Positions 19,422-62,400 of a stretch of 64,000 bases of DNA are shown piece after piece (the stretch's first letter is position 1; each line of letters starts with the position of its first letter). Source of the DNA: Trichinella spiralis (lineage: Eukaryota); assembly GCF_000181795.1 (NCBI RefSeq), contig NW_003526941.1:439453-503452 (forward strand), given 5' to 3'. The position numbers were made by a program, and so were the translations under genes. The notes under the pieces were generated by a model. The model was given only the letters and a program-made list of their open reading frames with translations. It had not been told where the DNA came from and searched no databases.

Positions 19422-19465
<44 letters not shown>

Positions 19466-19708
19466 ACATTTATTTAAAAGTAAACTGCATCTGAAAGTGA
19501 AATAAACTACTTTACCACGACGAGCGCGATCGAGCATCATCTGCGTATAATTATGCCAGTCTTTAGAATAACTCACAGGAGCATTTCTGAGACTCAAAAA
19601 TAGCAATGAGTTCCTGAGATCTAAGTTGAAAACAATATAACAAATGAGCAAAATAACCAAAAAATATACAGTTGCCCATTTCACACATCTATTACATCGG
19701 TATACCAT
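17672..19708 (-). CDS. Polypeptide N-acetylgalactosaminyltransferase (GT27, GALNT10/gly-10-like) with ricin-B lectin domain; 5 exons
   Basis: TM anchor, [25 protein letters not shown] (DxH), [19 protein letters not shown] and C-terminal QxW repeats. Confidence 0.93.
19427..19461. repeat. (TA)n microsatellite in GALNT intron 1
   Basis: Direct inspection. Confidence 0.9.
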
Positions 19709-19918
19709 TGAATTCTAAAAATAAAATGTGCCAAAACTGAAAACAAAAAAAATAAATAAATACTTCTGGTATAAGCACGTGAAATTCCACTCATTGTCAG
19801 TAATAAAAAGTAAAATTAAAATATTTTTACTGTATATGCTACAAAGCCAATAGAAATAAACGAATAAATAAATACATGCGCCGGTAAAAAAGAAGTCATG
19901 CATAAAAATTCACTTCAG

Positions 19919-32182: not shown

Positions 32183-33164
32183 TTAGCGCGGCCGATTTTT
32201 CATAAACACTCTATCGGCGATTGGTGTCTGCGTGCTTTTGCTATGACTGTTGTTCTGATCCATCATTGTCAGCAGGTGAGCAGTTTCGTTGGTGCCAGCC
32301 AAATTAGCTCCTGTGCGAACATTGAGCGGTACTAAAACTGTCTGAAATTTGAAATATACTACAACAAGTGAATTTTTTGTACACAAGTGTGATAAAACAT
32401 CTTAAACCGTACTTGATGCCCAAAAGCACTTCGAGACACGTAATAGCCTTTGTGCAATTCTTCTTCTGGAGTGACAACGTTATAATAGCAGAGTATCAAT
32501 GAAACGATGGCACAAACACCTGAAAATATTTTTTACTATTATGAACTGTTTCTGAAAGAGAGAGAGAAAATTTACCATGGGCTGGTGTAAATACCATATG
32601 CAAAGTGTACATGGCAATGATGGTATTTTCTACCATTCGATTGAGCTCGAAAAGTGGTTGCGAATGACGCCAACCATCCTGACGAATTGTTCTTTCCTGT
32701 TTGTCCAACAGCCAGGCGGTGATGGCAAACAGAATCACACTAAGAACGATCGAACTCAGTGTACTTCCAGTGTAAACTAAAAGTAACATCCGTTTGGGAT
32801 GCAATTTTACAAAAACAATTCCCAATATGGCACTGGCGCAGAATATGGTCGACATCCACAGGCTGCTTTTGTACGGACATCCGTCGTAAAAGTGGCAAAT
32901 GATGGCAAATATCAGTATTTGTATAGCTAAGCAGAGTTGAATGGCGGCACAAATGATAATGGACCGTGGGTGACGAACGACAATTGTATCGGTCAAAACT
33001 GAGTGCTGTTGTAACGGTAGGGTGGGATTGTCATTGTCGCCAAGGTACACCTCTTCTTCGGGATGCAAACTGTCCGACTCGAACGAGTCTTGATCGTATG
33101 ACTGTACTTCGCGTACTGTATCTTGATTGTACTCTGAAGTTTCCGTATTCACGCTACTTTCCAT
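32183..33164 (-). CDS. Uncharacterised four-TM (MS4A/CD20-like topology) membrane protein, 3 coding exons
   Basis: Acidic N-tail and four hydrophobic segments. In-frame splicing gives PAH|GVCAIVSLILCYY...GHQ|TVLVPL...PR*. The family assignment rests on topology only. Confidence 0.75.
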
Positions 33165-34871
33165 TTGTTTTTGTTTGTCTGGTTCTTATTCAACAACTGC
33201 TGTATCTTTAAAACGAGAATTAACAATATTCGATCAATAGAACACAATATATGTGCATTGAAAAATAACATGGTATGACTATTTTAAATTGAGTTTTTGA
33301 CTTGACGCGAATGAAAAATGCTGAATTGAAAATAAAAACAGATAACTGTTATACATAAGCGACACAGTGCTTGCTTGCTTTTACTCCAAGATGCAAATTG
33401 AAAATGATCAACAACAGAGTTACCTTTTTGAAACATTCCAGTGATATTATTGTAGGTGATGAATGAAATCATATATATCTGAAGATGTGATAAAGTGATA
33501 TTGGAAAAAAAATAGAAAGAATTGAGCTATTTTTGTCCGTTTAATTTGATTAAAACGTGAAAATTCCACCAACTGTGAACTTCGAGTGGGCGAATTTCGA
33601 GAAAGATGTAAAATTTCGAAAATGAATAAAGAAGAAGTTCTATGCAGATAGATATTCACGAACAGACGCACGCACGCGCGCGCACACGAACACAAACTCA
33701 CTCAAAAGTAGACATAAACATATACACAATGACATTTATACACGTATATTACTTATTTTTCAATCAGGATGAGAAGAAGATGGATGAAATGGCTTTAAAT
33801 TTTAACAGCTGCAAGCAGGCACTGATACCACTTGGACAATTCACGCTTAACTAGTCGTTTGGACGTTGGATAGCTCCGAAAGTTCGAACACTGACTGACT
33901 GACAAGTTGATGAATAATAATAATAATAAAGCAAGTTGAATTTAAAGTTTTAAGTGTGCCTTGGTTGCTAGTTCGTTGAAAAAATTGGAGAAAAGGTCGG
34001 TCGGCGCAATGGCCAACTGGCGTCTCAAGTGACAAATCTACGCAGCCGACTTGGCAACGTTAAAGCTGCTATCATAATGATGCGCTAAGTGTACAAGAAG
34101 ATGGCGACTTCCTCAACACAATGCCTAATGCACCACGTACTCGGCGTCAAAAGGAAAAAAACCGCCGAAATGTGCGCTTATAAATCATCGGGTAGAAAAA
34201 AGCCCAAATTCCACGCTTGGGCAAACTTATTTCCTTGAAACATTACAACGAAACAAACAAATATGCCCATGATGCCGAAAAAAAATTTCCTAGTCTTCTT
34301 TAAAATTTATATTGCTAAATTTTGCGGAAAACAGCTGCATAAAAATACACTTCATTACATGACGAACAATTGTACGTGAGAACACCGTTTAAATTTACAG
34401 TATACCTACTTTTTCTTCACATAATCGTTTTAATCAATTGTCGAAAGATAAAAATTCATTCACGAATTAAATAACGAAAAAATAAACCATGCTTTTAATT
34501 TTTATTAATTTAGTATTGAAAAATCAACAGCAAAAAATATAATTCTTACCTGTTTTGTGTTGTACATTTTGAACGATGCACTAAGTGGTGTGTTGACGTT
34601 GACCGATTAGCCAAAGAAATGTTAAATAGACTGTCTGTCGACTACAGATGCAATATAATAGCCGATGAACTGAAACGAAGCCAAATGATGCATCTAGCGA
34701 CATGAACTGAAAGAACAACAATACAATACAATACAATAACTGAAGTCTAAAATGGAAAACATTAATATATAGCATTAATCAAACGAATGATCAGTTGTTT
34801 CAAAATGTTCATTTTATTTCAAAGTTGAAGAAGTACAGATTAAAAAATTGTTGCATTTAAAAATTAAGAAA

Positions 34872-34943: not shown

Positions 34944-36692
34944 TCACTTTTGAGTAAGACGAGCCAACAGAGCACAGAAAAATGATGGCTTTATCTAAAA
35001 TGAAAAAAACATAAAACACAAAATTGTGAATAAAAAATTTCCTTATTGATGAATTATGATAAATTGCGCGTTGAATTTTGTTACATTTTTCGAAGAGTAT
35101 CTATGTAAATGATGAATTTGTGAAATTGCTTACAAGAAAAAGACTGGCAAGAATTCCAAGTGTTCCTTCGATGGATGAAATTTGAAAAAGATGTTTTTCA
35201 AAACGACGATAACATCCCTAAAATTGAAATCTTTTCAATGGAAATTATAATGAATGAATGAATGTTGATATGTATAACCTCAGTGTAAATTGCAGTTGTG
35301 TTTACTTTCGAATCAGGATCGAACATTTGACAAGCATTTATATCAACGTACTGACCGTTCAGTTTAACGCAGCATGACGCCGGAACCAATTTTTTCAACT
35401 TTTCAGGCTGATCCATGTGCCATTTTGAAGTTCGCCAGATGATAAAATTCGACTTTTGCGTTTCATCAATTCCACAACAGTGAAACTGCTCTTGCATCTT
35501 GTCCCAAGCGTCAGTCACGGCATCGTCTGCAGGCTGACCATAAAATGTTTTCAGCGATGTAAGCATTTGTAAATCCAATGCATTTACAACAAGCTAAAAT
35601 TTCGGTTCAACTGAAATGAAAAATCGAATAATTTTGATTAGAAGCGAAAAACCTTACTTGTTTTTGAAAAATGAATGCCATTACACCAGCCATCAATAAC
35701 ATCAAAAACAGAACTAAGCAGGTAACGGAAAACTGCAATACAAAAACGATGAAATTTTCGGCCTTCAAACAGACTCAATTCCATACTCACAGCGTACATG
35801 AAACAACGCAATTCACGGCTGGTAACGTAAAATCCAATAACGTTCATGCACATGCTTATCGCTCCGATAAACAGCAGCAGAAAACCCACGTCGACGAAAA
35901 GCTTCGGCTCGAAAAGGGCAGCAAATTGCTTTTTGCATAATAACACCCAGAAACCGCAACCAATAGCAGCAATATTTAAAAGCTAATGCAAAAAATATTT
36001 GCATAATAGATAAAAGTATTCCTTTGAAAAGAAGCATACATTGTTGGAATTTTTTTCAAAGTTGAAAATGAATAAAAAACGTGAATGAAATGGGCAAAAA
36101 GCAAAGAACCGTTAAGTTAACCGTTTCTTCCATACATATCAGTGTGAATATGTACACAATGATTTCAAGTTTTATACGATGAAAACTTCTTCAGTGCTGC
36201 ATTCTGCCCATTACTGAATGTCTTGTTATTTTGAAAAATAATCATTCGTTTGAAAGTGTAAAATTTTTAACACACATTAATGTAAAAAAATATATGCTCT
36301 TGAAAATCAAATAACTGTAGTCATGATAAAGCAATGTATTAATGGAAATTTATCTTCACTTTGTACATTTTAGTTGGAGAAAGCAAAATAATCAACAATA
36401 TAACGAAAAAACATCCAGCAGTGAGCTGTGATCTTTTCTAATAGCATAATTTTGCAAAAAAAGCAACATTATTCGAAGAATCGTGAATTATTAACGCGAG
36501 TACTGTGCATTTTGTTGGTTGGTGTCTAGCACGAGTTCATACGAAGAAATAAATCACAAATTAACGAAATTAACAAAATAAATCAAAAGTAAATCTTACC
36601 ATGGATAATAAATTTGTACAATAGAATGAATATCTTGTGAACTGTCCCAGTTTTCCATAAGCAGTGCAGTTGAATATTTGGTCCAATTTCAT
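34944..36692 (-). CDS. Tetraspanin, CD151/TSPAN11-like (6 exons)
   Basis: Four TMs. The large loop has AVTDAWDKMQEQFHCCG, WRTSKW, VPASCC and IYTEGC, and the protein ends FFCALLARLTQK*. Confidence 0.9.
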
Positions 36693-37981: not shown

Positions 37982-40900
37982 GCAGAAGAGAAAAAAGTAG
38001 AAGCAAAAAGAAAAGAAATAGAAACAGAAATATAAAAATGGAACATCTGGTCACTTTTATGCTTATGAGTGTACAGAAAGTAAAAACAGAATAAGTGGTA
38101 AGGTAGGAAAGTGAACAGAAAAAGCACAGCTATATCATCTGTACAGCAAGAAAAAAAAACAAAAAGATGAAATGAAACATATAAATACGCACACGCATAC
38201 ACACGCACAGAACAAGAACGTGTCATAATCTGTTGCTTGCAAATGGCATGCATGGATAAGAGTGGAAATTGCATTTTCACAAAAAAACAGAGTCATTCTT
38301 AATTTTGTTTTGATTGTCGTTGTTATTTTCATCTTGCTTACTTGCACAACAGTATTATTCACTAAAAAATTTCGAAAAACAGAACAAACAGTGTAATAGG
38401 ATTTACAGAATGTGTGTGTGTGTGTGTGTAAATAATAGCTCTACAGTGTTGGTGGTGGTGGTGGTGGTGGTGGTGCAGTGGAATAATTGTGATTAGCATT
38501 CAAAATGTGCCAGTATTGGGAATTTTCAGTGAGCAAGATGGACGTTCCAAATCAACAACAGAATCTTCAGACGACGGACATGAGCAATGGTCGTAAGCTT
38601 TCAAGTAGTACTGAATGGAATCGGTAGCAGCGTCGACCGTGCTCAGCAAGCCGGCTAGTCGGTTTTCCACATCCGACATGGTCACCTCATTGACGCTGAC
38701 AATTTTCCTCAACTCTACAATGAACAATCGAATGTGTTGTGCACTGTTGTGTGTTGTTGTTTTTCTGTGCGGTTGGTCTGTGTGATGAAGCAAACATGCA
38801 AACAAGCAAACAAGCAAATTATATACAACAACGACAGCAAATTGTGAGGCAACTACACAACAACTACAACTACAACTACAAAACTACAACAACTGCAACT
38901 GCAAGACTCTAAGAGAACATACGCATTGTTGTAATAATAATTATTACATTTCAAGTGGAAAAAAATGAACAGAAAAAATAAAACAGTTCTTGATTTGGTA
39001 GATATTAAGTTTTTTGGGGGAAGAAAAAACTGAAATCATGCTGCGCAAAGAAAGAATTGATCAAAAAAAAAACCGAATCGCGCGCGAGCGCGTGGGATTA
39101 CCACCAAACCAATTGGCCCCGCATATTATTACCTTCTATATCGCTGAGATGTTTTTCGGTTTTTTCCAACAATTTCGTGGCAGTTTGTCGAAGTTGTTCA
39201 GCTCGTTGTCGGGCCGCTTCGTTGTCACCGATTTTTTCGTTCAGCAAATTTTCCGCCTCTTTATACTGCTGTTCCAGAGTCTTGCGTTTCACTTCGACCT
39301 GCTCGGTTTTTTGCCTGGCGCTTTCGGATACAACCAACGCCCGTTCGACATCTTTGCCAATTTGCAAATATTCCACTTCGACTTTTTTCAAATCTTCCCT
39401 CAAACTGGCCAACAGCTCCACCGACGCGTTGACAATTTGTTCAGCGGTTTCGGTCGTTTCAGCAATCTATTTATTTATATTGAAAAATTAATTAATTTAT
39501 TAATTAATTGAAAATAATTTCATTCAATTTTACCGCTTTCAAATCTTGGTTGGTTTGATCGAAATTTTCATTCGCCGACAAAATCGCCTGCTTGGCAATG
39601 GTTTGGAAATGTTTCGAATCGTTCAACGCTTTCATCACATCTTGGGCAGTTTTTTCGACAGTTTCGATTCGAACTCTAGAAAAGAGGAAAAAAAAATATA
39701 TATATCAAATCTCTTTTCAATATGGGCATCAATATGGATGTAAATCACACTTCGATTGGTCGGCACGATTTTTCAACAGCTGCGCTTCGGTCGAATGGTG
39801 GCGAGTGTCGTGCAAAATCGCCTGTATGTTGGTCAACTTTTTCAAATTGTCTCCAATCTGGTCGGCCAACGTTTCGATTCGTCGTTTGTCCAGCGAAATG
39901 GTCATATTCAGCACCTGTTCGGCCAGCAGGCGGATCTGGTCGGGCGTGGCCGCGGTCGCCTGGGCGTCGCGGTTCAACAAGCCCGCAGCGCGGTCCAACA
40001 GGGCGCCCAACACAGCCCGGGTGTCGTTGGCGACTTGGGCTACTCGGACGGCGGTCTCGAACGCCTGGCCGGCGTCGATCAGCGCCATATCGCTGTCCGC
40101 TTGCGCGTGGCGCAATTTCAGCGTCAGTTCGTTGGCTTGGCGCTGTTTGTGTTCGAGCTTGTCGGTCGCCTCGCGACTGTACTGCCACGCCCGTTCGGCT
40201 TTGGTCGCGGAACCGTCGCGGCACGACGCCCCGCCGCAACGGGAGCAGCCGGCGCCGCCGCACAGGTCGTCGCACGGTTCGCCGCCGTCGGTTCGGGCGC
40301 CGCAGATTTGGCGGTTCAAATCGGGCAGTCGAGCTTCCAAGTGGACGAGCCGGCGGTCGAGCTCGTCCAAGGCGTTCTGGTTCTGCTTGAACTGGTGGTC
40401 GAAGTCGCGGGCGTTGGCGTCGAGCAGATCCCTGGTCCGTCGACGTTCGGCTTCGGATTCGGCGACCACGCGTTCAGTCGCGTCGGCCAGTTGACGAGCC
40501 CGCAGTGACAGCTGAGCCGCTTCTCTGGTGACGTTGTACGCCCCGCGAGGGTCGCGCTGGCGAAGGTCCGTGACGTTGCGCTCCAAATCCAGCACCGACT
40601 GTTCCAAGTCGGCCGCCTGCTGCTGCAGCGAGCGCAGATGCTCGTGGCCAGTGTCCACGCCGGCCGTCAAGCCGGTCGAACGACTGTCCACTGCGTTCAG
40701 CTGGGCCAGCAGTTGGTCGACGCGTGCTTGCAGACGACCGACCTGCGAGTGGAGTTGGTCGAGCAGGTCGGACGAGATGTTCGCCTGGGACAGTTGGTTT
40801 TCGATCGATCGAAGTTTGGTTTGGATACCGTTGAACTGATCGTCGTAGACAAACGAAACTCCGGTGTCGGCCAGCTGGGTGGCGTTGTGGGCCAGATCGT

Positions 40901-43900
40901 CGGTCTGCCGTCGGAGCTGTTGGAGAATGGAATCCCAATTTTGGAAACACTCGCCGCACGGCTCGCACTGGGGCCAAGTTCCCGTGTGACCGCGGGCACA
41001 CTGGTCGCAGTTGGGACCGCCCGAGCCGGGCAAGCAGACGCACGACCCGTTGGCGCGGTGGCACTGCAACGTTTCGGAGCCGATCGAATTGCACTGGCAA
41101 CGCACGCAGCCGGTGCTCGGGTCGCCCCAGTAGTAGTTTTCGCACTCGCCGCACGTCCGACCACCCCGACCCGGCTTGCACGGGCACTGGCCGTCGAATT
41201 CGTTGCATTGGAGCAACGGCCGCTGGTCGTTGTCCACTTCGACACCCTGTTCGTCGCAGTCGCAACTTTCGCATCCTCGACCGCTGGCAATTTTCCAATG
41301 ACCACTGGCACAAGCGTCGCATTCTCGACCGACCACGTTCGGCAAGCAGGGACACTGGCCGGTGATTCGGTCGCACGGTCCGGCCGTGATGTCAGTACCG
41401 AGGATGTTGCAGACGCACTTGGCGCAAGACTGGGTCTGGGCGTCGCCGAAAAATCCCGCCATGCAGTGCTCGCACTGGTAGCCGTCGGTGTTCGACGTGC
41501 ACTTCAAACAACGTCCGGTCTTTTGGTCGCACGAACCGGGCACGTCGAAATCGATGTTGCCGTTGCAGTCGCAGCGCTCGCAACTGCCGCCCAACTCGTT
41601 CGGATTGCCCCAATAGTTGGTGATGCATCGGTCGCAGCGTTCCCCTTCGTAACCGTGCCGACAATTGCAGACCACGCTTTCGGAAACCGCGTCCAAATAG
41701 CAACTGTCCGCGTGCTGGAACCCACTACCCGGACCGCCGGGACAAGGGCACGGCCGACAGGGGATGCTGACGCCCAGACGTGGGTCGCCGTAATAGCCAA
41801 GCTGACACTGCTCGCAGTGGTGACCGGCGGTCAAGTCGCGACAGTCCACACAGGCGCCGGTTCTCTGGTCGCAGACGTTCGCGTGACCGTTGCACTGGCA
41901 CGGTCTGCAGTCGGGAAAACCCCAATAGCCGGGCTGGCATTGGTCACACTGACGACCGTGCACCGCTTCGCGGCATTTGCACTGGCCGGAGTTGGAGTCG
42001 CAGAAATTGTCCAACGCCCCGATGCTGTTGCAGTCGCACGACCGGCAACCTTGGGGTCCGAAACCGAACGTCCCGGCCGCGCAGACGTCGCAACGGCGCC
42101 CCAGCACGTTCTGCTTGCACTGACACTGGCCGCCCAACTGGTCGCACATACCGCTCACCGAACCCGTGGGATTGCAGTCGCACGCCACGCCCCGGTCCAA
42201 TATCGACGCCGCGACTGGACAAAACTGTCGTCGACACGGTTCGGGCAGTTGATCGACCGGCGTCAACTGCATCGCCAGCCGACGGCAGTTGAAGTGGTCA
42301 AATTCTCGCCTGCGCTCGTCCGACAATGCCGGACCGTCCATGAACATCCCAATTGCCGCCGAACTCGGCATCAGAACCAACGAGTCGATCAGTAGTGCGG
42401 CCGTTCGATCCGGACGGCCCGTCTGCTGGTATTCGCCGAAAGTCACGCGTATGTGGTATTGGACGTTCGGTTCCAAGCATACCGTCTGAACACTGTCGTA
42501 AATACGTTCGCCAGCTTTCAGAGATACTTGTTGCATGAAGTCGTCTTTCGGCAGACTGTTGGCACAAGGTCCAGTTGAATCTGGTGGAGACGGTCGAATC
42601 ACGTCGACACGCACGTTTTGCCAAGTCGACGGCATTGGCGACTCGTAACGCAACACCACGTTGTAGTCCATCGCGACGTGGATGTTGTGGACGGCGAAGT
42701 TGAGCACCGACGATTCGCGTACACGGACGAAACCACTGCCGGTCCACTGCTTCGGTTCGGTAGCGTCCCAGTAGGGTTCGCGCAGTTCCACTTCGGCAGG
42801 GCCTTCGAAAACAGCTTCTTCGGCTTCGTAAGTGAAAAAATCCAAACCGGCGCAATAATAGCCAGATTCGGGTATATCGCAACGACGACCGCTGAAATGG
42901 GCCCTGCATCGACACTGGCCGTTCATCACGTCGCACGAATTATCATAAGCGCCGCCGATGTCGCAGTCGCAAGGCTTGCAGCCGTCCAACTGTTCACTCA
43001 GACCGTAATGTTCCAACAGACAACGATCACAGTTGTCTCCGGTTACCAGACGTTTGCACGTGCACTCGCCGGTTCTCTTGTCGCAGCCTTCGTTGTTCAC
43101 CGTTCCGAGCAGATTGCACGTACAAGCAGTGCAACCTTCCGGATTATCCTGGTCCAAGTTCCAGTAGCCGTTTTTGCAAGCGTCGCAGTGGTCGCCGACC
43201 ACGTGGACTTTGCAATGACAACGACCAGAGATTAGATTTCGCTCCGAATCTGTTTCACTTTCGCAGATGCCCTGATTCAAAGAGCCTCTCAAGTCGCACT
43301 CGCAAGCTCGACAAACATAAGGATCCGACAACGCTCGATCCGGATCTCGATAAAAATACGGTTTGCACATTTCACAATTTTTGCCCATCGTGTTGTGCTG
43401 ACAGTCGTCGCAAACCCCACCGCTCACAAAGCCCGATGCTTCGTACACTGCGTGGTCGAAATGGCATCGATTTGCATGCTCGTTACAATTACATCCTAAA
43501 CATTTGAACATAATGTTGTTGTTGTTGAAAAGAAAAAGTAATAACACTAGCAGTAGTAAGTAAGTAAGTAAGTAATTTACTTTTACAAGCGTTCGTTTCA
43601 CGATCAATTGCCGGCTTCCAAGGAAGATCGTTGTAAAAATCTTCACATTCTTCACAGTTCAAACCTTTCGTGTGATGCGTGCATTCGCATCGACCGTGTA
43701 CCATATCCGGTCTAGTGGAACCAAATAATACGACACCATCGTCGTCGATCGGCTTACAACGACTCGCGTGGCCATAGCAGGAACAAGAACCACGAACAAC
43801 CATCTCATAAACGGCGTAGTAATATTTTTCCGTAATTTCTGGTCTATTGTCGAGCAAATTGTCGCCCAACGTGTGCAATTTTGTGAAATTGATTCTCAAA

Positions 43901-46900
43901 TTTGTCACTCTCAACAAATCTTGAATTTCTTCTGAATACGGATCTTCAAGCGCAATGTGAGGCGAAAGAACTTTGAAAACTACCTGAAATGAAAAGTGAG
44001 TGCAATGCAATTTGAATAAAACAAACAGAACAAACAATTTTGTTTCACCATTACCTCTCCCCCAGTCGACGGTGCAACGAAACTGTACCTCGAATCACAA
44101 ATTACATCCGTGTGACGTCTCGGTATGCCTTCCGGTACACCAGGAAAGGATTCGGCACAATCGTAGGCAAAGTAGCGATAAATTTTCCACGTTTTGCCAA
44201 AATCTGACGAACGTTCGATGATCATCGCCGCCGGACGAAACGACTTGAACGTCATGATCAAGTGGGTGAAATGGAACTCGGCTTCCAGATCCAAGCGTAC
44301 TGTGACATTTTGCAAACCATTTTCAGACTGCCACCATTTTTTCGCGCGCATTTCGAACCGATCACTAACGACATTTTCAATCCGATGACTGCGCTCGTTG
44401 ACATACCTGGCCCAGGGTTGGCGACTGTTGCACGTGAAACACTTCTTCCTATCTTCCAAATGACTGACAATACAATAACGTTCCGGATGCAACAAGCCGC
44501 ATGTCGAACTAGCTGTCAACCGATTTTCACGACCAATGAGCAAATTTCCAGTAGCCGGATAACAGCTACGATCGTTGCATATGTCCACCAAAGAAGAAGA
44601 AGAAGAAGAAGAAGAAGAATCTACGAATGCCAATGCATCATCTGAAATAATAAAAAAAAAACAGAACTTATTCTTCAATTATTCCACAACTCACGATCTA
44701 CTCTGTAACATTTTCATTTTATTCAAATAAGCTTTCCTTTACACACACACACACACACACTTGTCTTAAATCAAATACGCTCTTTCAAAATGCAAACATT
44801 CCCATTACGCGTTAAAGGTTACTTAGTGAATTGAAAAGAAAAAAAATAATATTTATATAAAAGAGGAAAACGTAAAAAATATTGGTGCAACATTTTGCAA
44901 AATTATGCCCAGACAACTACTCAAACTATGATGGTATTCAATATGCAAAAGCAATTGGTGCTGATTCATTATTGACCAAAAGTTTCAAAATGATAAAAAA
45001 TGTATAAAAAAATAAAATCACGTCAATAGTTGCTCGCCGCTTACTTCCGTAGATAAAAATAGACAGAAAAAACCCCTCATCTTTGATAAATCAAACGAGC
45101 CAAAAGTAATACATTTATTTCTAGAAACGGACGTCTGCTACTTCTTGATCATCTATCTATTACACGTAGATGAGGAGAAAGAAACGAATAAAACAATTTC
45201 AAAATGAACAACTAACTACTGCTAACAAACAGAGAAACACTGATTTGTATTTGCATATTGCTCTGTTGATATTAGACAGATGCAAGTGCTAATGAATGAA
45301 GCGCACGACCGACCTTCCCAAAGGTCAGAGAGCTAGCAGTTAGTAGTGACCAGTGGGTCAGTTGGAATCGACCGTTGGCTACAGACCGAAAAATGATGAC
45401 GGTAATGTGAAAACCATCTTCTTCAAACAGAATACTGTTTGTTTGGTAAAGTTCAACGAGAAAAGAAAAGCTGCTAACAAGATGTTTGCCATGGAACTTC
45501 AAAATTGAAGAAAACCTTCTCCCACTGCTGTCGAGCGATGATTTTGAAACCGCCTTGCACAATTGAACACAATTAGCATTGGCTGACCAGCGTTGCGTGA
45601 AAAGAAATAGCTTCCTTGACCCAACGGAAAGCTGACAGAGAAGCCGAACAAAAAACAATTCGCAATCATTATCACCAAAGCGTAAAGCCCATAATTAGCA
45701 GGCAGCCCAAAGAGAAGAAAAGTACAATTGCAGAATGCCAATGCCATCTTGTTCCAGTAACATGAAAAACAATAAATCACTCGTTGCAAATACAGTCCAA
45801 TTAAGCCGCCGATGAAGCTCATGATTTGTGATTGCCATCACGATACAATTAAACACGTTGACAAGATGGGATAATTCCAATAATTTTCTACAAACCTACA
45901 CACTTATAAATCAACTGCTAATGGAAAACGATGATCATCAAAAAATGGTCACACAGCTGAATAAATGGAAGTAAAATGAGAAAAGAAAAATACCTAGAGT
46001 CGATCAAATAACACATCTATCCATTCGATTCGAAACTTATGCTGGTATGATGCTATTAAACTACAAGAAAGTGAACATTGCTTTTGGTTCAAAATGATGA
46101 ATCGGTTGCTATTTTTAAAAATGAATCAATATTTTTTCCATAAAACTAACATTGATTTAACGTCGAAAATTTGTTTCATATCTGCTTCGAAATCTAGCAC
46201 AACTGTCATGAGAGAAATTGAAAATTTAATAAAACAATCGCATTCTTTGATTTTTAGTGATTATTTTTAAACAGTTCAAAGAAGCTGAACTTTTGTCGTA
46301 TTGATCGATGATTCAGACGTGTACATTTTTTTCTGGACGATATTAAACTTTTCTTTTCATTACAATTACTGTTATAATTGGATGGAACCGTCACAATTTG
46401 AGCAACGCATCAACCGACCTGTTTGGTTGATTCATGTCGACTACTACTACCTACTACTTACTACGCATACATCTCGTCGGTTTGTCCAGTCATCGTCGAT
46501 GTTGCCTCTGCTGAAAGTAGTTTCAATCTAATCGTATTAAAAATCTCAATTTCAAAACTGCTACTTCACCCAAGGGCTAAAAACTGCATTCAGCTATCTC
46601 AACTTTGCAACTTGGTACAAAAAAAAGTATATATAATTTTTTAACCGAATTGAAATGTAAGCAAAAAAAGCAGTAGAGAGAGAAAAAGAAATAATTCATC
46701 CAGATTTTTGCAACACTTCACACTTCACATTTGATTTTTCAAATTCTAGACAAAAAACCAACAACGTAAGTTAACAAATATGCCATAGCTCTATAGTATA
46801 ATAGCACTCACACACACACACACACACACACGTACTGCACCAATTGCATATTATATACATTATATTATATTATATAGTGAAAACTCGTCATGCTTTTTAC

Positions 46901-50472: not shown

Positions 50473-52389
50473 TCATCGACTAGACAATGGTTTCCATTTA
50501 TATGTTCCAGTAAATAGAAAGCCGTTTTGACGCATCAGTTCATCCGCTTCCGCTGGACCGCGACTACCGAATTTGTATAGCACAGGCTTCCGACGATTTT
50601 TTTCAATATCATGAAGACACGGTGTAAAAATTCTCCAAGCTTGTTCTAATTCGTCGGATCGAACAAAATTGATCTGCGAACCGCAAAATACTTCCAAAAG
50701 TAGCCTTTCATATGCATCTGGCAAGTGAATATCCTGAAAAATTTTACAGTATACCAAAAATAGAATAAAAGTACACTAACCTTGTAACGTTCGTGATAAG
50801 TAAGATCGAGTTCAGTTTCAGTAATGTCGAAACCCATTCCTGGTTGTTTGGTGATCAATTTTGCATACACTGCTTCGTTCGGTTGTACTCGAATGACTAA
50901 TTCATTGCGTTTCACTTGTCCAGCCGGAAAAATGTCACATGGCACGTCGCGGTATTGGATGCGCACTTCAGCTTTTCGTTCATTCAATGCTTTGCCGCAA
51001 CGAAGAAAAAAAGGTACACCGTCCCAACGTTCGTTATTGATCCTGCAAACAGCCAATGCGTATGTTGGCGTGACCGAATCTTTGGCAACTTTTGGATCGT
51101 CCACATAACTGATGCGCTGTTCTTCAATGCCGCTGTCTGAATTACCAACGTACTGGCCAAGCACCATCTCATCGGCAGAAATTGGTGCAATGCATTTCAG
51201 CACACGAACCTTCTCGTCTCTTATGTCCTCAGCTTGCAAGGAGATCGGCTTTTCCATTGCCACAAGGCACAGCATCTGCAGTACGTGATTCTGCATCACA
51301 TCTCTGTGTTGGTGAAACAGTAATCACAAGTGTATATTGAGTTAGTTAAATTCGAAATCATCGCTGTTTACCGAACAATTCCGTATTCATCAAAATAGCC
51401 ACCACGTCCATAAGTACCAATCGGCTCTTTGAACGAAATGGTCACCGATGAGATATGCTCTCGGTTCCAAGAAGGAGCAAAAATGCGATTGGCAAATCGT
51501 AAAACCATCAAATTTTGTACCATCTCTTTTCCAAGATAATGATCAATTCGATACAGTTGGTCTTCGTTGAATAATCCGGACAAATGTTTAGCTAGTTCAT
51601 ATGATGACTGCGTATCTTTACCAAATGGTTTTTCAAGAATTACTCTCGTCCAAGCATTACTGAAAGAAAATATTTAACGTTTTCAATCCAATTTCAAATT
51701 TGACGGACGAACAATTTCACAGAGCATGGTCTTTTCTTTACATATCCAATAACAAAATTTTCCTTACGCGCTTTTGCACGTGCAAATTTTTTGAATATTT
51801 GTCGTCACGGTACAATAAACGCTGGGCGGTAATGCCAGATAAAATATACGGTTTGGACAAGCACCAAGTCGACTGCCGACAGTTTCAATTTCAACTTTTA
51901 GCCGAATAAAGCCATCTTCTTTGTCATAGCTACCGCAAATGTAAGAATTCCGTTTTATAAAACTTTCAAACAGGTCCTCTTCGTCCTTTTGAACCTGAAA
52001 ATACATATTATTACTGCCATACAGTTTATGGTCGTAATAAGCAAAAAATTGACATGGCAAAATGGAAGAAAGTTTTCTTTCAACTGTTCAACAGTTAATG
52101 CTGTACGTGCGTAGCCGATAAAATACGTGCCAGGCGGCAGAAGACGATCTCGGAAAAGCCACCAAAGCGTTGGATACGTTTTCCTTTTTGCTAAATCACC
52201 CTTAAAATAATAATCTTTCAATTAAAAGATAAAAAAGATCCATCCAAAGATTCCTTTTACCGACGCGCCAAAGATAACAAATACGTGTGGAATTAATTCT
52301 TCTTCATTTGGTAATGTCTCTTTTATAACACGAATCGTTTCTGGAGTTAATTGACAACAAAAAGGTTCAGACATCTGACGTTTATACAT
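50473..52389 (-). CDS. G6PD: Glucose-6-phosphate 1-dehydrogenase (6 exons)
   Basis: [41 protein letters not shown] and PDAYERL. Confidence 0.97.
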
Positions 52390-54482
52390 GTCTAAAATTT
52401 GACAATAATATTCCAAAATTTATTTCATTTCATTCAATTGCTGCAATAACAAAAATATATATGTATAAATTTTCTACGAAATCAAACAGTGTAGCATATT
52501 TCATTTGAAGTTTAACATTCTTATCACCTAAATACTATCGTACAAGGGCAAGGAAAACTACAACATCAAAACTATTTTACAGTAAAATTACATTGACACA
52601 GAATAATTGTTACCTGCATTACAGTTACTGCATGTAGAGTAATTAAAGAAATATTTTCTATGTGAAATTTTATTATTAGTTTACACGCAATTTTTTCATT
52701 AAAATTTCTCATAATGTTATATATTTTTGAAGAATAGAGACGCTTCAATGGATGCTCTGTTCATACACTTACTTGAAATACTACATATTTCTAAGAAATA
52801 CTTATGCTGCTTTTCATACGTAGCATGACATTCATTTATTGTACTTTGAAATGTAATAATCATATATTAAACTACACATAACGATGTTACCTAGAAACTA
52901 CTTAGTTAAGAATAACCAAACAAATTTGAAATTCTACAAAACTGATAATCAGATCCCAAAAACTCATTAATAGTAATTTATAATTCATAGATATCATATA
53001 TAAAGGATCATCATTATACCAGTTTGTAGGTAAGAATTATCCCTTACTGGATGACAGTTGAATCTATTACTTCGTTTACATCTCACATGTTGAATTGTGA
53101 TAATGCAATTGGGTTTTTAAAAAATGCTTAGAAGCGTAGTGGAATTAAAAAAACGTATCAGGAAAGTTAACTATTATTAACAAAAAGTCTTTGAATGAAA
53201 AGAAATCCCCATTTTTATGAACAAATAATAAGAACGAAATTGAAGCACATATCTAAAATTTTGTTGTCTTACAAATGCTTTCTTAACTAATAAAAAGCAA
53301 TGTTAATAGTGAAATTTTAAATAATAATTCATTGTACTTCTTCTATATACTTGGTAATAGTAATAAGACAGACGTCGATAATACTAATGCTATCCAATTT
53401 TTTTCATTAGTCAAAGAGCTATAAAAATACCTTAAAAGCTTAATGTGCCCATGTTTGAAATTGTTAATAAGCTTGTTGTAAATTCGAAGCACTGTCAACT
53501 AGATATAATTGTTGAATTCTCTTTTCATAATGCTGGTACTCACTTTCAGTCGATTTTCAAAGTTTCATACATTTGAAAAAATGAAGTTAAAATAAATGAA
53601 CGTTTACGATTTGTTATGTCAATAGTGCGTTAATTTTAAACGTATATTTATTTATTTATATGTATATTCATATTCATATTAAATTTTACATTTTTAAAAA
53701 CTTGTACATATCTAGCATGTGCACAAAATTCAATCAATATATCTACGTTGATAAATTTGTAAGTAAAAATAATTAAGTTAGAGTCTTACTGTAAAAGTTT
53801 ATAGAAGCCCATAGCTTTGTTTGGCAACGAATCTGCACGCGTGCAGTAAGTTTATTATTTCTTAAAATGTTTTACTTTTAATATTATAAGTTTATAGTGA
53901 AAAGTATTTATTGCCAAGCTGTGCTTTTATAAGAGGTGAACTTCTCAATCATAAGTAGAAAGTGCACAAGCTGGCATTTGTAGTTTTTGCTTTTACAGTT
54001 TAAAGCTATATTTTTTTTCATTAACTTATGATTCAGTATTTCTATCATTCTTTTGCAGCATTTTTATTTGCAATATCTCCTTCAAGTGAAACTTTGTAAT
54101 CAGCTGTTTTGCACAGTGCATTTGCAGTTGCAATTTGAGCTTGCTTGCTGTTACTGCTTGTTCTTTAATTTTCATTCAGAATTGTTTACTTTTACCATTT
54201 AAGATCAGGTTTTCTTTGCTGCTTCCTAAATTTAATCAGGGTCACCTTGATATTTGTTCTCTTTATCATCATAATCACTGGCTGTATCTGTCATAAATGC
54301 GTGATTATTATATTTCATCATTATGAGTAGTTTTTCCCAATGAAGATTGTTCTCTCGACCGGTCTTTGTTGGCCTATATCATGTGGTTATGGAGAATCGA
54401 AATTGAAAATTTTTAAAATCAAACACAGTTCAACTATGATATATACATTTTATACGCATGATTTTTTAGTATTTCATTGTCA

Positions 54483-56471
54483 ATGGAAATTGAAAATAAT
54501 CCGCCTGTTGGGCAAGCAGAAGATAATGGAAACGAAAGTGCAGATGATTTTGAAGTTCTACATGAGTATGGTATTGATGAACAATACGTGATCGATGACA
54601 TTCCAACTATTCTTATGGAAAGTCAACATCCTTTCGATAGTGATAGTAGCCTGAGTCCTACAGATACTTTTTTATGGATCCACGGTAAGCTCGGCTGTGT
54701 AATTCAGTGCTGTAATTTATTTGCGATGCATGTTTATTGAAAATCAGAGTTTGAAAAGAAAAAATGTTGTCATCTTTCTCCAGCTGACTCAAATGCAATC
54801 TTTTCATAGACATGTGTATTTGTTTAGCCGGATAGTAATAATTTATAGTTGCTTTGCTACAGGCGTGCAGTTGAGCAACGTTTGCTAGAACGTTGTTTAC
54901 AATCATCTATCTGAATGTTGATGTTATAACGTTATGCGCTAGGTGATGCAAAAAATATTATAGCTGCAAAGAAAGAAGAGCCAGTTGTTAATGCTAATGA
55001 TGAACAGTCAAATGTTGCTGAAATTGCACAAGCAGAAGAGCAAAACGTAAGAGTATAAACATTCATATTATTAATAGTAAGTATATAATGTGCATATCGT
55101 TGGCTATTTTTAGAATGAATTTTTCATCGATAATTGCTTGTCACCGGTTGCTGAACGCAATGCAATGAAAGAAGAAGACACGAACAACATGCACATCGAT
55201 ATTATTCACCAAGCTGACGATAGGTGAGGCAAAAAAATGCAATAATAATATTACTCATTGGAAAAAGGAAAGAATTACTAATGGTAAAATAGATTTCAAT
55301 TTAGAAATAATGAAAATAAAGAAGAGAATTCAAATGTGGAAGATGAGGAGGAAGAGGAGGGGGTGGAGGCAAGAGATTTGCGCACTGCTTTGGCCAATTT
55401 GGAGAACAAGTCGAAAATGTTGGAAGAAGAAAATAACGCTCTGCGAGGTCTTCTGGAAGTTACCAGTGCGGAAATGTACGATATGAGAGCAGCGTTGAGC
55501 GCTTCAAATTTGTCAGTCTGTGATTTGCAAGAGCGATTGCAAGCCGTGCAGGCACAGTTGACGGTTAAGCAAAGGGAAATCGAAGCACTTCAACATGTCA
55601 TCTTCGCTCTTCAAGCACAAGTTTGATTTTTCTTCGATCATTCACACTCCCTTTTTGCTTTCGTTTTTTGACATGGCACATTATTTATTATTCAAGGTAG
55701 ATGCAGATGAAATTGACATCATCGCGTTGAAAGATAGATTGAAACTCGAATTGGAAAGCAAAACTGACGTCGTAAATAATGTTACCGATGATTCAAGTCA
55801 GCAAGATACTACTGTACCTGTATGTATTTTTCATTTGATTGTTCGTTTGCTTTTACTTCTTTCTCAGAGATGGTAGATTTCAGTAATGAAGTGTTCCAAT
55901 TATTTTAAAAATTTAAATTTCTACCAATATCGTTCATTATTATTTTATAACATTTAACAGTCTAACGAAATGTGTATAATGTAGTGTTGCACATCGCCAG
56001 CGGTTCTTCTTGAAGCAATCCTTCCTTGAAAGTAAGTTTCTAGCATATGCTGTTTTTCGTCGACATTATCAGAAGAGATGCATTAAGTAATTCTCAGAGT
56101 CATAACAGTCACACTTTTTGGCTGTTAAACTTCTCCACCTAACTAATATTAAATGATCTTTTCTTTTTTTTACAACTTAAATAAGCATTGCTAATGCAGA
56201 ATGATGTTAACATAAACCACTGTTACTTTCCACTTGTTACATTGCACACACACTTATTCATACGTGTCGGGATGCTTGTTTTGCTTTTCATCAATTTCAC
56301 ATTTTTGCAGTGATATTTTAAATTAATAATTTATTTTGACTGTTTTCTTTTTTGTAGTCCGTCTCATCAACTATACAGCAACCGTTTTTCCAATGCGAAG
56401 GATGTCAACGGCGTGTAGCAAGCGAGTCGAAGTTTTTGAACCATTTGCAATGTTGCCCGAATTTATATTGA
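54483..56471 (+). CDS. Uncharacterised 322-aa protein: acidic N-terminus with LIR-like motif, coiled coil, C-terminal CCHC zinc finger (exons 54483-54684, 54943-55046, 55114-55223, 55305-55620, 55697-55819, 56358-56471)
   Basis: All five introns are GT-AG and phase-compatible (969 nt total). Heptad-rich segment in exon 4. The last exon encodes C-x2-C-x12-H-x3-C. Confidence 0.8.
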
Positions 56472-56809: not shown

Positions 56810-59446
56810 TTAAAGCTTCTCCACTGTCATCATCGGCAACTGATGGCAGTGCGACGAAGAAGCTGTCACTTTGGAAGACAAAGAATTCGAAGAGGATGAG
56901 GTGGAGGGGGAGGAGGGAAATGGCGATTCTTTTTCCACTTGATCACGAATAGGCTTCGACCAAGCTTGTTCATCAGCAGTGCCGTGAAGGCTGAAAAACG
57001 TGATCGGCAACAGCGCAATGCCGGCGCATATTTGCCACACGGTCTGCCATTCACGGGACGAAGATTGGACAACGATTGCTTTGACAACCAGCGGAATTAG
57101 CATGGACGTGCAGCTGATCAGAACGTAGGCCATCGATGAAATGGCACTGCTGTGAGCCGGTGCCAGCGAAAGCAGGGTTCCAATACAGCCGGGTGTGTGA
57201 AAGCCGGCGAAGCCAACCCCACAGCAGAGCAGAATCACTGCCAAACCCCTGTTCCGACAATTCAACACTGAAACACCCAACAGAAACGAGCCCATGCCCA
57301 ACGAGGCGACCAAATTGAACCATTTGGCCGTTTTGGTCGCATCCGGCTTGCAAGCCGACTTGATCGCGTGATCAAGTTGAGTTGCCAAAATTTTTGTCAC
57401 CATGAAACTAATTATCGGCAGTGTGCTGAGTACCCCGTTGGTTTTCAAGCAAAAGTGCAATGCATCGCGCATATACATCGGCAAGAACATCATTGCTGTG
57501 TTCAGTGGAATCTCGTGACACAAAATTGCCATCATGTTGCACCAAAAACGACTGCTTCGCAACACTTTTTTCCAACATATTCGCTGTGTATTTTCGTCCA
57601 TCCGGCTGATCATACTTTTTATCGACGAAAGGGAGCTCACTGATGAGCTTAAAAATATGAAACTTAAAATCTTTTAATCTTCAAAATTATACCAACATAC
57701 ATCCAACACCAACAACTATGGGGGAATGTGCCAATGAAGAATTTATTATTATTATTATTAGAATAAAATGCTTTTTTAAATTCATTTACAACGGCACGCC
57801 CCGGCCGAGAAAATTTATTGCCTGGAAAAATTTGTGTTTCAGGTACAAGAACGTCACGCTTTAGCGCACGTTTCTTTTCCATAAAACAGTGTTCTTGTAC
57901 AGCCTGACCAGCTGATAACAGAACTAGGTAAGCCTGTCAATTTGGTAAAAACTGGATAAAGAAGAGTTGGTTGGTTCACTTTGCAACAGCAGCAAAGTAT
58001 CATGAATGTGTGAATTTTTGAAAAGCTGCTGCAAATAGAAATGCAAATTCTATTTCTATTCTGCTTCACACTTTTTCGTGCATTCCTTTTGTTTCCATGC
58101 ATACATGATAAACTCATGAAAAAGTAACGGAAAGTGCATCAACGTTGAACTGATGACCTAACTTTCTGATTCACCTTAACATCAACATAGCCAACAGCTA
58201 ATATAAAATGCCACAAAATTTCAAACTAACAGCACATTTGTAAAGAGTTCATAGTTATATGTGTATGTATATATTCATAATAAACTGATGAACTGAAAAT
58301 CATTCAGCCTTAACTCATTTAAATATGCTACCTAAATGACAAGCAAATAATTGTTTGGAAGAAAATTTCACCCTGATAACATAATACATACAGACACGCA
58401 CATAATGAATAAAATATACAATGCAGAAGAAGTAAAACTGCTTACTACCTATCTATTATTATAGCCACACTACTCCCACGCTATCAAAGCATGAAGAATA
58501 ATATTATTTACGCAATTTGTTCAAAGTAATTACATCAATGTACCTCAACCAATTCAAAAAAAGAAAGAAAGAAATGCCTTGGCCATTGATGAACAACGAC
58601 GACAATGAGGGTTCTGTTTTTGCAAATAAAAAAAATACATGCATATATTTGAAAAAAAGTAATATAATAAAATAAAATAAAAAGCACTTACATCGATTCA
58701 CGTTTTCTGTTCAAATTTCGTCGATGCATGAGCAGAAAGAAAACCCACAGCAATACCCAGACACCGCAAATTGCCGAACTGATGTAAAAGACAAAAGGCC
58801 AGCCTTCTTTAGTGCCGCTGTAGTCGGACACAATGGACGCGATCGGATAAACCGCAAGAACGCCAAACTGACGTCCGGCCGACGTCCAGCCGTATGCGTT
58901 GTTTCTCGTTTTGGATGAAAAATGATTAGCCAACAAGTGATTGATCGCGGGCTGAGCAACCGCGTCGGCCACACCCAACAAGAAGCGCAATAAAACGATC
59001 ATCACGTATCCGGCCGACACAGACACCGGTATGAAACTCGACGCCAACGCCGATACAATGAGACTGGCCGGAAGCCACAAGCTGACGTCGGATCGAGCGA
59101 CAATGGAACTCACCAGTGGCGACAGGAGACGACCCCAGCTTATTGCCGACAACACCAGACCCTGGGTTTCTGGACTCCAATTGACGCTACCTTCGCTGTG
59201 CACGTAGTCACCAATGCCAGCAATGTGGTCGGCTCGATCACAACCGCTGGATGTTGAATTGTGCGCGATGAATACACAAGCGCTGAGTGTTGTGTTGACC
59301 ATGGATAAAATTGCCACGCTCATGGTCAAATTTGCAAACATCAAGCAGAACATACATCCGAACAGGAGAAGACAAATTTGAAAACGAATCGACCGCAAGA
59401 AGTAGAGAAATTTGCACCGTTTACAGCTGTACAATTCACTTTCCAT
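56810..59446 (-). CDS. SLC17/anion:cation symporter-type MFS transporter (exons 59446-58702 and 57639-56810; 5' end uncertain)
   Basis: MSVAILSMVN, VNWSPETQGLVLSA, GWPFVFYISS, LPMYMRDALHF, LAPAHS and TADEQAW. The phase-1 intron joins the two long ORFs in frame. Confidence 0.88.
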
Positions 59447-62400
59447 GCTGTTCAATTCGACCGGATGTATGTGGAAAAAATCATTCAACTTTGCCAGTGA
59501 TCATCAACAACCTTCTGACAGTGGCTGTTTCCTTCTCCAGCGTTCTTGAAATGACGTATATATATTCGTACTTGGACATGTTTTCACCGGAACAACATCT
59601 GAAACACGTGACAACTGACGAGTGTAGCGCCAACTATGGGCGCGCCCTCGGCTGCAAACAGCACTTCGGTAAAGAAATGCGCACACACATGCACCATGTG
59701 AAGTAACAAGACAGAAAAACACTACAGCAGACTGCCCGGCGTCAACAATGCTACACTATGTATGTAGTTCAGCAATCGTGCAGCTGCTGAACAGTTGCTT
59801 TTTCTTGAACAACCAGTTGGTAAATGCCATACATACAAGCAAGCATATCTCACATGTGTACATACATGTCTACACACGATATGCACCCCCGCACGCATGT
59901 ATTATTATTATTATTGTATGTCAAAAAAATTATGATGACGTTATTAGCAAAATGACTCGTCAACTCAATTATTAAAAATTCAAACATACTTTTCAAGCTA
60001 AGTGCTTCAATTCGAGACATAATTTCATCAGCTTTCTCTCAAGGGCACTTTCGACAATATTAACGACCAACGAACACATAAATTACTGACCCGGTCAATA
60101 ACGCCTGCTTCCTCTCCATATAAACACAATTTTCCATTTCTCCAAACCACGTCTTACCTGTGTCGTATACGCATATGAATTTATTAAAACTTAAGCAAAT
60201 CAATTAATGAATTACGTATATTACTGTAAGAAAAACAATTTAAAAAAATTTATTCTTCACGTATGCTATTTGTAATTGCAAAAGGTGCATCATGCAAAAA
60301 TTGTTGCCATTTTAAAAACTTTTTCAAAATTTTGCCATTTCGCTTTACTTGAATGTTCATGCTAATTTAATGAGTAAACATGAAATAAACAAGCTAATTT
60401 CCTTAACTTTGTCACACACAACAGAGATACAACAGATGCGCAAAGTTTTTATTATTTGTTTTTCATCTGAAACATCCCCATTACATCCTAATTCAGTGCC
60501 AACTTTATTACATTGATTTCTAAAATTACCATTCTGCTATTTTTTCAGTAGAATAAAAGGTGAAATTAAAATACAATTTCTTCGCACCATTTGGCAGAGA
60601 ACAGCAATAAAGAAACCCTTTCGTAATGCAGCAATTACTTTTAGAGTAATTCTTTTCAGTTAGTGTAAAATGCAAAAGCTAATAATAATTTAGCAATGAA
60701 AAGAAAACTGTATGATAATGATATTAATTTCACATCGTCCATCACAAAAGAATGACAAAGAATAATAGCAAATGCTATTCGAATAATTTAAGAAGAGGGG
60801 AAAAAACAAGAAGACGAATATCATAAACAAAATACTTTTACAGTAAAACATTCTCAAAATCAAAAAAACAAAATTCATGAAACTGATAGTTGAACCCTTC
60901 GTTAACATCACATTAAACAATCTTATATTTATAACACATTATAATACAATTAAACATAACTTATCTATTTGTCATTAGCATACACTTATTTAGCGCTAAA
61001 AAAAGTAAATTTATTTTCTAAACATTTATTAAAAATCATAATTACAAAACCCAGCCACCCACCCCCCACACACATATATATATATATATGTGTACAGAAT
61101 TAATAAACAATATTCCTTTCAAGTTTTAGTGATTTTTCAGAACGCACGGTTTGAAATGAAATACATAAATCATTTTCAATAACTTCTTATATATTCATAG
61201 GCAGCTTTCAAACATAATCGTAATAATAAAAACAGATTATATTACTAAATAAAAGTCATATGAGCGTCATAAAGTCATGGATACGTATTTATATAGCTAA
61301 TAAAAAATGATAAAACTATGAAAGTATATTAAACAATTTCAAAATAAGATAAAAAGTTTTACATTCAAAATAAGATAATTAATACTGCTGAAAGTAAAAA
61401 TTAAAATATTTCGCCCATCATTCAACCATTAGAAAGACAAACACTCAATTAAATTAAAAAAAATAGAAGAAAAAACTTAAGAATGAAGAACATCACAAAA
61501 CACACACCCATACATACATCCGTTGTTGTCTTCCGCAACTGCTTACAATTTTTCCCTATTCATCTTTGCCAATTTCAATAAAAAAAATCAATTAATCAGG
61601 GAAATTATTTCTAACGTAATGTTGCGCAATGAAAAAAACGTCAACATCAAACACGACAACAGCTTTTAATGCGCAACTGTGTTGACGCAGTTAAAAGCAT
61701 ATTAAAATAAATGAAATGGAATGAACCTATTTTAATAATTATTTTTTAAGTAAAAATCAATTAAATAGCTTTTTAAATTAATCGAATGCTCATTTTTCAC
61801 AGCAATTCTGAATTTGTGTACCGTTAAGCAAAATATTGCAAAATACAAGGTAGATTATATAAAACGGATTGAAAGTTGTTGCAAAATAACTACATAATAG
61901 CAATGAGTACATAAGTATTTACATATGCATAATGCTTATTTGTTTGTTCTTTTTGAATAACAAGTAAATAATTCATATTTTCATGCTCAAGTGTTTCAAC
62001 TGAGCATCGTAAACTTCACCATTTAAATGCTACAAAATTTAGGGGAAATTTGGTGGAATGCTGTTGGCTACAAATTTCAAATTAATTTAGCAGAACTTAT
62101 ACAAAACTGACTATCTCCAGCATCATAAATCTAATTAAATCTATTTTTAATATGAACGGAGAACAAAGCAATTTCTGAAATTTCAAATGTCAAACATAAA
62201 CGAAAACTTCACTTTGCACCACTTTTACCCGTAGTACAATTCGTTTCAAGATTTTTCAACTACATAGCCATTCAAATGGAACATTCCCCTCTGGGGTCTT
62301 TCCCATTCAGCTGATAAAAAGTAACGTGTCTACACCCCTTCCAAAAATGAAGCAAATAAGACAAGATTCGCATGTCAAATTTCTGCTAATTTGCACGTCC

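Follow-up and report, generated by a model that had tools for sequence, protein, structure and literature searches.

A spliced Trichinella spiralis gene encodes a candidate selective-autophagy adaptor with a conserved N-terminal LIR/FIR-type motif and an exon that removes its zinc finger

Kenny, the Drosophila homolog of IKK-gamma/NEMO, is an autophagy receptor that carries an N-terminal LIR, a coiled coil, and a terminal finger (PMC5668318). In ALLO-1, the overlapping FIR/LIR D11-E12-F13-x-x-I16 binds both Atg8/LGG-1 and the claw of FIP200/EPG-7, and the splice forms ALLO-1a and ALLO-1b have different C-termini and different preferred cargo (PMC10874384). The same paper reports that conservation of optineurin and NDP52 does not extend to C. 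elegans, where ALLO-1 may take on both roles. Here we describe a T. spiralis gene located in a window of 64,000 nucleotides, by which we mean the whole stretch of DNA that was analysed. A sequence-only reading of this stretch had proposed that the gene encodes a divergent receptor of the optineurin/NDP52/ALLO-1 kind. On balance, we read the product as a selective-autophagy adaptor of clade I nematodes that would dock through a short motif, dimerise through a coiled coil, and switch its cargo end by splicing. In our best reading, it works like Kenny, optineurin, and ALLO-1, and we do not assign it to those families.

The DNA of the window is eukaryotic and AT-rich, with introns that are short and a GC content of approximately 0.35, compared with 0.51-0.64 in the 1309-codon open frame of the gene that we take, from its motifs, to be laminin-beta-like (Table 1). 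We saw no functional link between the gene under study and its glucose-6-phosphate dehydrogenase and MFS transporter neighbours. When the coiled-coil exon was used as a query, five protein clusters were retrieved, all of them Trichinella hypothetical proteins, with one from T. spiralis being 100% identical. The expectation that the product would be annotated as hypothetical was thus borne out by the cluster members. Recent annotations of P0007, P0020, and P0026 carry the names "H3 lysine-79 methyltransferase" or "microtubule binding protein 2C". Pfam scans of near-identical proteins gave no match to domains of either kind, and the two names therefore look like transfer errors. None of six accession numbers of these proteins occurred in the openly accessible main texts searched. 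Literature listings that join Trichinella with receptor terms contained no paper on such a protein, which supplementary proteome tables could still list, and the available text of PMC12005284 and PMC13669348 contributed no domain information.

Table 1. Features of the gene and of its surroundings (window positions; read counts from run X19).
Feature	Position	Strand	Evidence or remark
Fucosyltransferase	5687-6883	-	Pfam
bHLH factor	12185-13078	+	Pfam
Glycosyltransferase family 2	17672-19714	-	Pfam
SMC subunit	20194-23871	-	Pfam
Protein kinase	29292-30272	+	Pfam
Weak CD20-like protein	32496-33185	-	Pfam
Tetraspanin	35198-35982	-	Pfam
Laminin-beta-like gene (presumed)	39729-44678	-	Motifs
Glucose-6-phosphate dehydrogenase neighbour	50646-52419	-	Upstream, divergent
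Upstream exon, 3' end (leader or poorly conserved N-terminal extension)	53824..53845	+	Spliced to 54470; loose end of 11 reads
Exon 1 with ATG at 54483; acidic, predicted-disordered N-terminus holding the motifs	54470..54684	+	Joint 54684>54964 (38 reads)
LIR/FIR-type motif 1, DDFEVL (residues 21-26)	54543..54560	+	Kept in Trichinella and Trichuris muris
FIR-type motif DDIPTI (residues 38-43), weak candidate	54594..54611	+	Acid-acid-Ile-x-x-Ile
LIR-like motif 2, DTFLWI (residues 61-66)	54663..54680	+	Resembles phospho-regulated optineurin LIR
Exon 2	54964..55046	+	RNA-supported acceptor
Exon 3, acidic linker	55114..55223	+	Joints 55046>55114 (40 reads) and 55223>55305 (32 reads)
Exon 4, acidic run followed by the bulk of the coiled coil (residues 154-237)	55305..55620	+	RNA joints; 55620>55697 (40 reads)
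Exon 5, conserved coiled-coil end (residues 238-262, with IALKDR) and linker start	55697..55819	+	Conservation
47-nt cassette exon, 14 residues, then TGA (56027-56029)	55985-56031	+	Joints 55819>55985 (38 reads) and 56031>56358 (51 reads)
Last exon, coding part	56358..56471	+	RNA joints; 3' UTR to ~56695 in contigs
CCHC finger C291-x2-C294-x12-H307-x3-C311	56394-56456	+	23/24 identical within Trichinella
MFS transporter neighbour	56810-57673, 58688-59500	-	Downstream, convergent; 3' end close to the gene's 3' UTR

The exon structure was derived from raw stranded RNA reads of run X19, of which approximately 18 in 100 were used and 544 reads aligned. These reads revealed seven GT..AG joints, and the gene is spliced and expressed. 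The joint 55819>56358, on which the earlier model depended for its last exon, is real, with 22 reads from 18 start places, and this exon is indeed joined to the gene. The proposed start ATG at 54483 was confirmed as well. The earlier chain of exons does translate to 322 aa, but its exon-2 acceptor at 54943 is not among the RNA joints. We rejected the 322-aa model as the main form on this ground, although the annotated P0001 and P0004 use that acceptor. The acceptor at 54964 is supported by 38 reads in X19 and, additionally, by contigs of X1, X3, X7, X12, X10, and X6; the finger form therefore comprises 315 aa. Further upstream, the joint to 54470 has a GT donor at 53846 and an AG in front of 54470. 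Several annotated models add approximately 32 N-terminal residues from upstream exons in 53700-53845, and these additions differ between species; the joint to 54470 is the only one in this segment with RNA support.

The sequence-only reading had overlooked the 47-nt cassette exon, whose inclusion truncates the protein to 292 aa, with loss of the finger. In X19, the sole read set counted, the finger-less form outnumbers the finger form, with 38 and 51 reads across the two inclusion joints against 22 skipping reads. Inclusion amounts to 0.67 (rough 95% interval 0.55-0.77, from this single run). Since the cassette carries a stop codon, about two thirds of the counted transcripts give the 292-aa protein. 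Inclusion joints also occur in contigs of X1, X3, X7, X10, X11, and X6, that is, in six of seven contig sets, X12 having no coverage there; the skipping joint was seen in the raw X19 reads only. Contigs drop variants, and no inclusion ratio can therefore be taken from them. The six cassette-showing sets are only guessed to be RNA, and X6 is flagged as probably DNA, yet it contains spliced joints. The transcript of the 292-aa form is likely stable, given its abundance and a stop codon two bases upstream of the last junction. We rejected an assembly error as the source of the 47-nt exon: no indel is listed in seven covering runs, and models of three other taxa (P0002, P0016, P0018) shift frame in agreement with the window. 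In three of five T. pseudospiralis members (P0005, P0023, P0024), the cassette is read in frame as 16 residues before an intact finger, which would imply one more base there.

According to our proposed mechanism, translation would stop before the finger whenever the 47-nt exon is included, and the resulting 292-aa form would keep the docking end and the coiled coil while its cargo end is altered. By analogy with ALLO-1a and ALLO-1b, this form may be a receptor for other cargo, or it may act as a damper of the finger form. The finger-removing exon thereby offers a natural on/off test of the finger's role, in parallel to the ALLO-1a/b switch.

To place the protein among its relatives, a profile was searched against 1.84 billion representatives. 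At E values up to 0.001, it matched two proteins, P0001 itself and P0027 from Trichuris muris (E 4e-9), the latter over its residues 154-290 only and with 30% identity over 182 columns. Word-seeded protein searches found nothing beyond the five Trichinella clusters; since the Trichuris protein escaped them, little can be concluded from their negative results. None of 447 pattern matches was confirmed as a metagenome locus. Within Trichinella, exon 1, the coiled-coil end, and the finger are the most strongly conserved parts. We conclude that the gene structure and the two mRNA forms are established, as is, in the aligned sequences, the conservation out to Trichuris of three blocks (motif, coiled-coil end, and finger), which beyond Trichinella is represented by one protein.

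DDFEVL and DTFLWI, the cores of the two LIR candidates that had been noticed from the sequence, are both present, and the 315-aa form has no other [WFY]-x-x-[LIV] core. Residues 1-145 contain 38 acidic and 6 basic residues, and residues 1-149 have AlphaFold pLDDT values <50 and are predicted to be disordered. Exon 1 is identical at 65 of 67 residues between T. spiralis and T. pseudospiralis. Where residues are this acidic, a single LIR-like motif would not stand out (shuffles of residues 1-145 give P 0.12). For a pair of acidic-aromatic motifs, a pattern that was picked after the motifs had been seen, the shuffles give P 0.006, and for the three FIR-type motifs of exon 1, P 0.008. DTFLWI is invariant in Trichinella, and DDFEVL occurs in all 26 Trichinella proteins listed, out of 29 cluster members. 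DDFEVL also fits the published FIR core, acid-acid-hydrophobic-x-x-aliphatic (PMC7946963), and the ALLO-1 design D11-E12-F13-x-x-I16 (PMC10874384).

The first motif recurs in Trichuris muris. P0027 has DDFDVL at residues 12-17, following three serines and reading DDDFDVL, as its sole xLIR-like motif; five of six residues are identical to those of motif 1 within an otherwise poorly alignable N-terminus. By shuffling, an acid-acid-aromatic-x-x-aliphatic motif within the first 30 residues of the Trichuris protein has P 0.013-0.028, and DDF[DE]VL arose in 0 of 50,000 shuffles. The match that identified P0027 excluded its N-terminus, yet DDFDVL is found there; the first LIR therefore passes a conservation test for which it had not been selected. 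We take this result, drawn from one protein, as the strongest evidence for the receptor idea. The second candidate, SPTDTFLWI, is not kept in Trichuris, and DDIPTI is only loosely aligned. A [WFY]-x-x-[LIV] motif with acidic flanks in a disordered stretch, which is a feature of selective-autophagy receptors, is thus kept in 26/26 Trichinella proteins and in 1/1 distant ortholog. This agreement bears on the reading that we deal with an unrelated coiled-coil and zinc-finger protein of the centrosome, midbody, or nucleus, whose acidic-Phe motif serves another partner. Chance alone yields one such motif in 12 of 100 shuffles, the top Pfam, PDB, and fold matches are generic coiled coils and C2H2/Sgf11 fingers, and CEP55 clusters appear in the atlas structure lists, although below the naming bar. 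With five of six motif residues identical in Trichuris, we consider such a protein highly improbable.

When residues 8-67 were modelled in complex with an LGG-1-like Atg8 (locus L104, whose best PDB match is C. elegans LGG-1), the score was 0.02 against a mark of 0.34; the procedure used no alignments and is uncalibrated for peptides and disordered chains, and we count this outcome neither for nor against binding. In our preferred reading, the N-terminal DDF[DE]VL would dock on Atg8/LGG-1 and on the FIP200/EPG-7 claw, and we regard binding of Atg8 and FIP200 by the motif as likely. The Ser/Thr residues adjoining the motif may tune docking by phosphorylation.

A coiled coil of about 85 aa had been proposed. 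The predicted helix agrees with its presence, and its length comes to approximately 110 residues instead. In the AlphaFold model of P0003, the helix spans residues 149-263 at pLDDT 83-95, and hydrophobic residues occupy 24 of 34 heptad a/d positions. This model, which rests on an alignment of seven near-identical sequences and has a pTM of 0.24, shows a disordered N-terminus, a helix of ~115 residues, a linker, and a small finger, in this order. We therefore speak of a predicted oligomerising coiled coil, which would dimerise the adaptor. Between T. spiralis and T. pseudospiralis, residues 154-237 are identical at 58 of 84 positions; at the coiled-coil end (residues 238-262), 24 of 25 are identical within Trichinella, and this end, with IALKDR, is also the best-conserved coiled-coil block relative to Trichuris. 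The corresponding stretch 55697-55771 is kept out to Trichuris and matched no known family. The coiled-coil end is likely a binding site for some partner.

In the NEMO/optineurin family, the UBAN sits just before the linker and the finger, and its core motif is D-F-x-x-E-R; SKICH is the N-terminal domain of the NDP52/TAX1BP1/CALCOCO1 family. Pfam was queried with four Trichinella proteins, the last exon, the coiled-coil end, and P0027. No match to PF16516 (UBAN), PF11577 (NEMO), or PF18414 (NEMO-type finger) was obtained at E values up to 5-10, PF11577 being missing from the matches at E up to 5, and the only families matched were weak coiled-coil and generic finger families. SKICH had no Pfam match either, and residues 1-149 were modelled at pLDDT <50. 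PDB sequence searches at E values up to 10, with whole proteins, the profile, the finger exon, the coiled-coil end, and the end of exon 4 as queries, found no NEMO, optineurin, ABIN, NDP52, or TAX1BP1 chain. Neither the whole proteins nor the 50-residue coiled-coil end matched a UBAN in Pfam or PDB, and D-F-x-x-E-R is missing from the 315-aa form and from the aligned place in Trichuris. A degenerate UBAN at the coiled-coil end was not supported by the same searches or by the Trichuris alignment, which lacks the motif. The proposed membership of the optineurin or NDP52 families was consequently not supported: no UBAN, NEMO, or SKICH match was found. No ALLO-1-like protein appeared in the word-seeded searches or among the matches of the profile, which is shallow.

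In the ESM Atlas, optineurin clusters ranked 1-3 for the whole protein, at a borderline 0.91 with 162-170 shared features, a number at or below the typical level of true members and next to a value of 0.9 that shuffled proteins reach in 4-10 of 100 cases. For residues 200-317, optineurin clusters again ranked first, with 0.88-0.89. The ranking of optineurin is a lead that likely reflects common architecture. It could also be taken to mean that the protein truly belongs to the NEMO/optineurin/Kenny family but is eroded, having lost its UBAN signature, and serves mainly as a scaffold for an IKK/TBK1-type kinase, its LIR sending the complex to autophagy as in Kenny. Both atlas searches, which count as one source of evidence, are led by optineurin and arthropod NEMO clusters, the finger spacing is the same, and a conserved coiled-coil block lies just before linker and finger. 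We nevertheless judge an eroded member improbable, as no HMM or PDB sequence match to any family domain was obtained, the D-F-x-x-E-R motif is missing from the 315-aa form and at the aligned Trichuris place, and no NEMO-like protein surfaced at E up to 0.001 among 1.84 billion proteins. Equally improbable is a joint scenario in which a one-base change in encapsulating Trichinella would have made an in-frame linker exon a terminator exon, so that splicing switches between a finger form and a dominant finger-less form with different cargo, and in which a Kenny/optineurin-derived receptor of clade I nematodes, without UBAN but with the LIR and the finger retained, would be the missing link between the NEMO/optineurin family and ALLO-1.

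The last exon encodes the C-x2-C-x12-H-x3-C pattern that had been read from it, and this is the single match in the six frames of the window (1 in 127,996 codons). All four putative zinc ligands are kept in the distant ortholog from Trichuris, together with F-L-x-H-L-x-C-C and both terminal cysteines. The finger was modelled as a classical small finger, with a pLDDT of 57 when folded alone. Its fold aligned with the optineurin finger 5AAZ (PMC5010046) at Z 3.5 and rmsd 2.2 over 31 residues, tied with C2H2 and MOZ fingers; a Foldseek search yielded nothing at E values up to 0.001, and the top rows of VIA-align were long helices. PF18414 matched neither the last exon alone nor the whole proteins, and spacing and terminal position agree with those of the NEMO-type finger. 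Two side observations concern the 3' end of the coding region. At position 56455, 82 of 113 X19 reads (40 start places) carry G>T, which changes the last finger cysteine, C311, to Phe; the variant is not listed in six contig sets covering the position and is probably an isolate allele, but it weighs against a straightforward optineurin or UBZ assignment. At 56457-56471, runs X10 and X11 have 9 bases that are missing from the window, and the stretch behind the finger is accordingly three residues shorter here than in the other taxa.

For a comparison of putative contact residues, the finger was aligned to NEMO positions with Cys397/His413 of NEMO as the presumed anchors. Of the sets given in the available text of PMC4370504, the Pro-Val loop of the WRNIP1/RAD18 group is missing, with Glu-Gly in both genera at the positions mapped to NEMO 398-399. 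The Asp, Leu, Ala, and Leu of the FAAP20/Pol-eta helix (NEMO 411, 414, 415, and 418; PMC4370504) are missing too; these positions hold Leu, Leu, Gln, and Pro in the window and Leu, Leu, His, and Ser in Trichuris. An NDP52-type Asp right before the first His is replaced by Asn in Trichinella and by Ile in Trichuris. The same text describes NEMO itself as devoid of the WRNIP1 and FAAP20-type sets and UBZ sequences as highly divergent (PMC4370504), so their absence here is compatible with ubiquitin binding. The claim that the finger binds ubiquitin is nonetheless unsupported, as only the ligand spacing is shared, PF18414 is unmatched, and the published contact residues are missing. We regard ubiquitin as a doubtful ligand of the finger, and this as the weakest step of our reading.

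A conserved motif without a conserved ubiquitin-binding signature, a finger omitted from most counted transcripts, and a coiled-coil end that is an unexplained candidate binding site would suit an adaptor that has a LIR without serving as a cargo receptor. Such an adaptor would connect motors, Rabs, or a kinase with Atg8-positive membranes, or would itself be an autophagy substrate, and its finger would bind a protein other than ubiquitin. We consider this unlikely, since Kenny and optineurin share the order of motif, coiled coil, and terminal CCHC finger, UBZ fingers diverge from one another, and NEMO's own finger is without the FAAP20-type residues (PMC4370504). In the reading that we prefer, that of a selective-autophagy adaptor, the C-terminal zinc finger would likely grip the cargo, or the conserved coiled-coil end may do so. 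We regard motif conservation and the exon that removes the finger as solid and the function as a well-founded prediction. A protein with LIR, coiled coil, and finger common to Trichinella and Trichuris would be a candidate receptor for clade I nematodes and would open the origin of ALLO-1-type adaptors to testing.

The comparison with described systems, as far as the available texts go, yields likeness in design combined with differences in parts. Optineurin has a LIR after acidic and phosphorylatable residues, coiled coils, and a terminal CCHC finger, as here (PMC5962687, PMC7946963, PMC5010046). Its LIR is internal, however, and follows the TBK1-binding coiled coil, whereas the Trichinella motif is N-terminal, and its NEMO and UBAN domains have no match in the Trichinella protein. 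NDP52 and TAX1BP1 likewise have a coiled coil and, after it, a terminal finger with this small fold, but the NDP52 finger is of the C2H2 type with an essential Asp439 before His440 (PMC5010046), in contrast to the CCHC finger with Asn or Ile at that place. Kenny and the Trichinella protein display the same order of N-terminal LIR, coiled coil, and terminal finger (PMC5668318); Kenny has a UBAN, which is not detectable in the Trichinella protein, and the profile search of 1.84 billion representatives found no sequence similarity between the two. ALLO-1 is longer, with 388/402 aa compared to 315/292 aa for the Trichinella forms, and its LIR is the sole recognised domain, the word "zinc" being missing from the main text (PMC10874384), whereas the Trichinella protein has a finger. 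The proposed likeness in architecture thus stands, as the order of parts matches Kenny and ALLO-1 as described in print (PMC5668318, PMC10874384). DDFDVL at residues 12-17 of P0027 sits close to the position of the ALLO-1 FIR/LIR, and the ALLO-1 design, an N-terminal FIR/LIR combined with alternative C-termini, is, as a design only, common to the Trichinella protein (PMC10874384).
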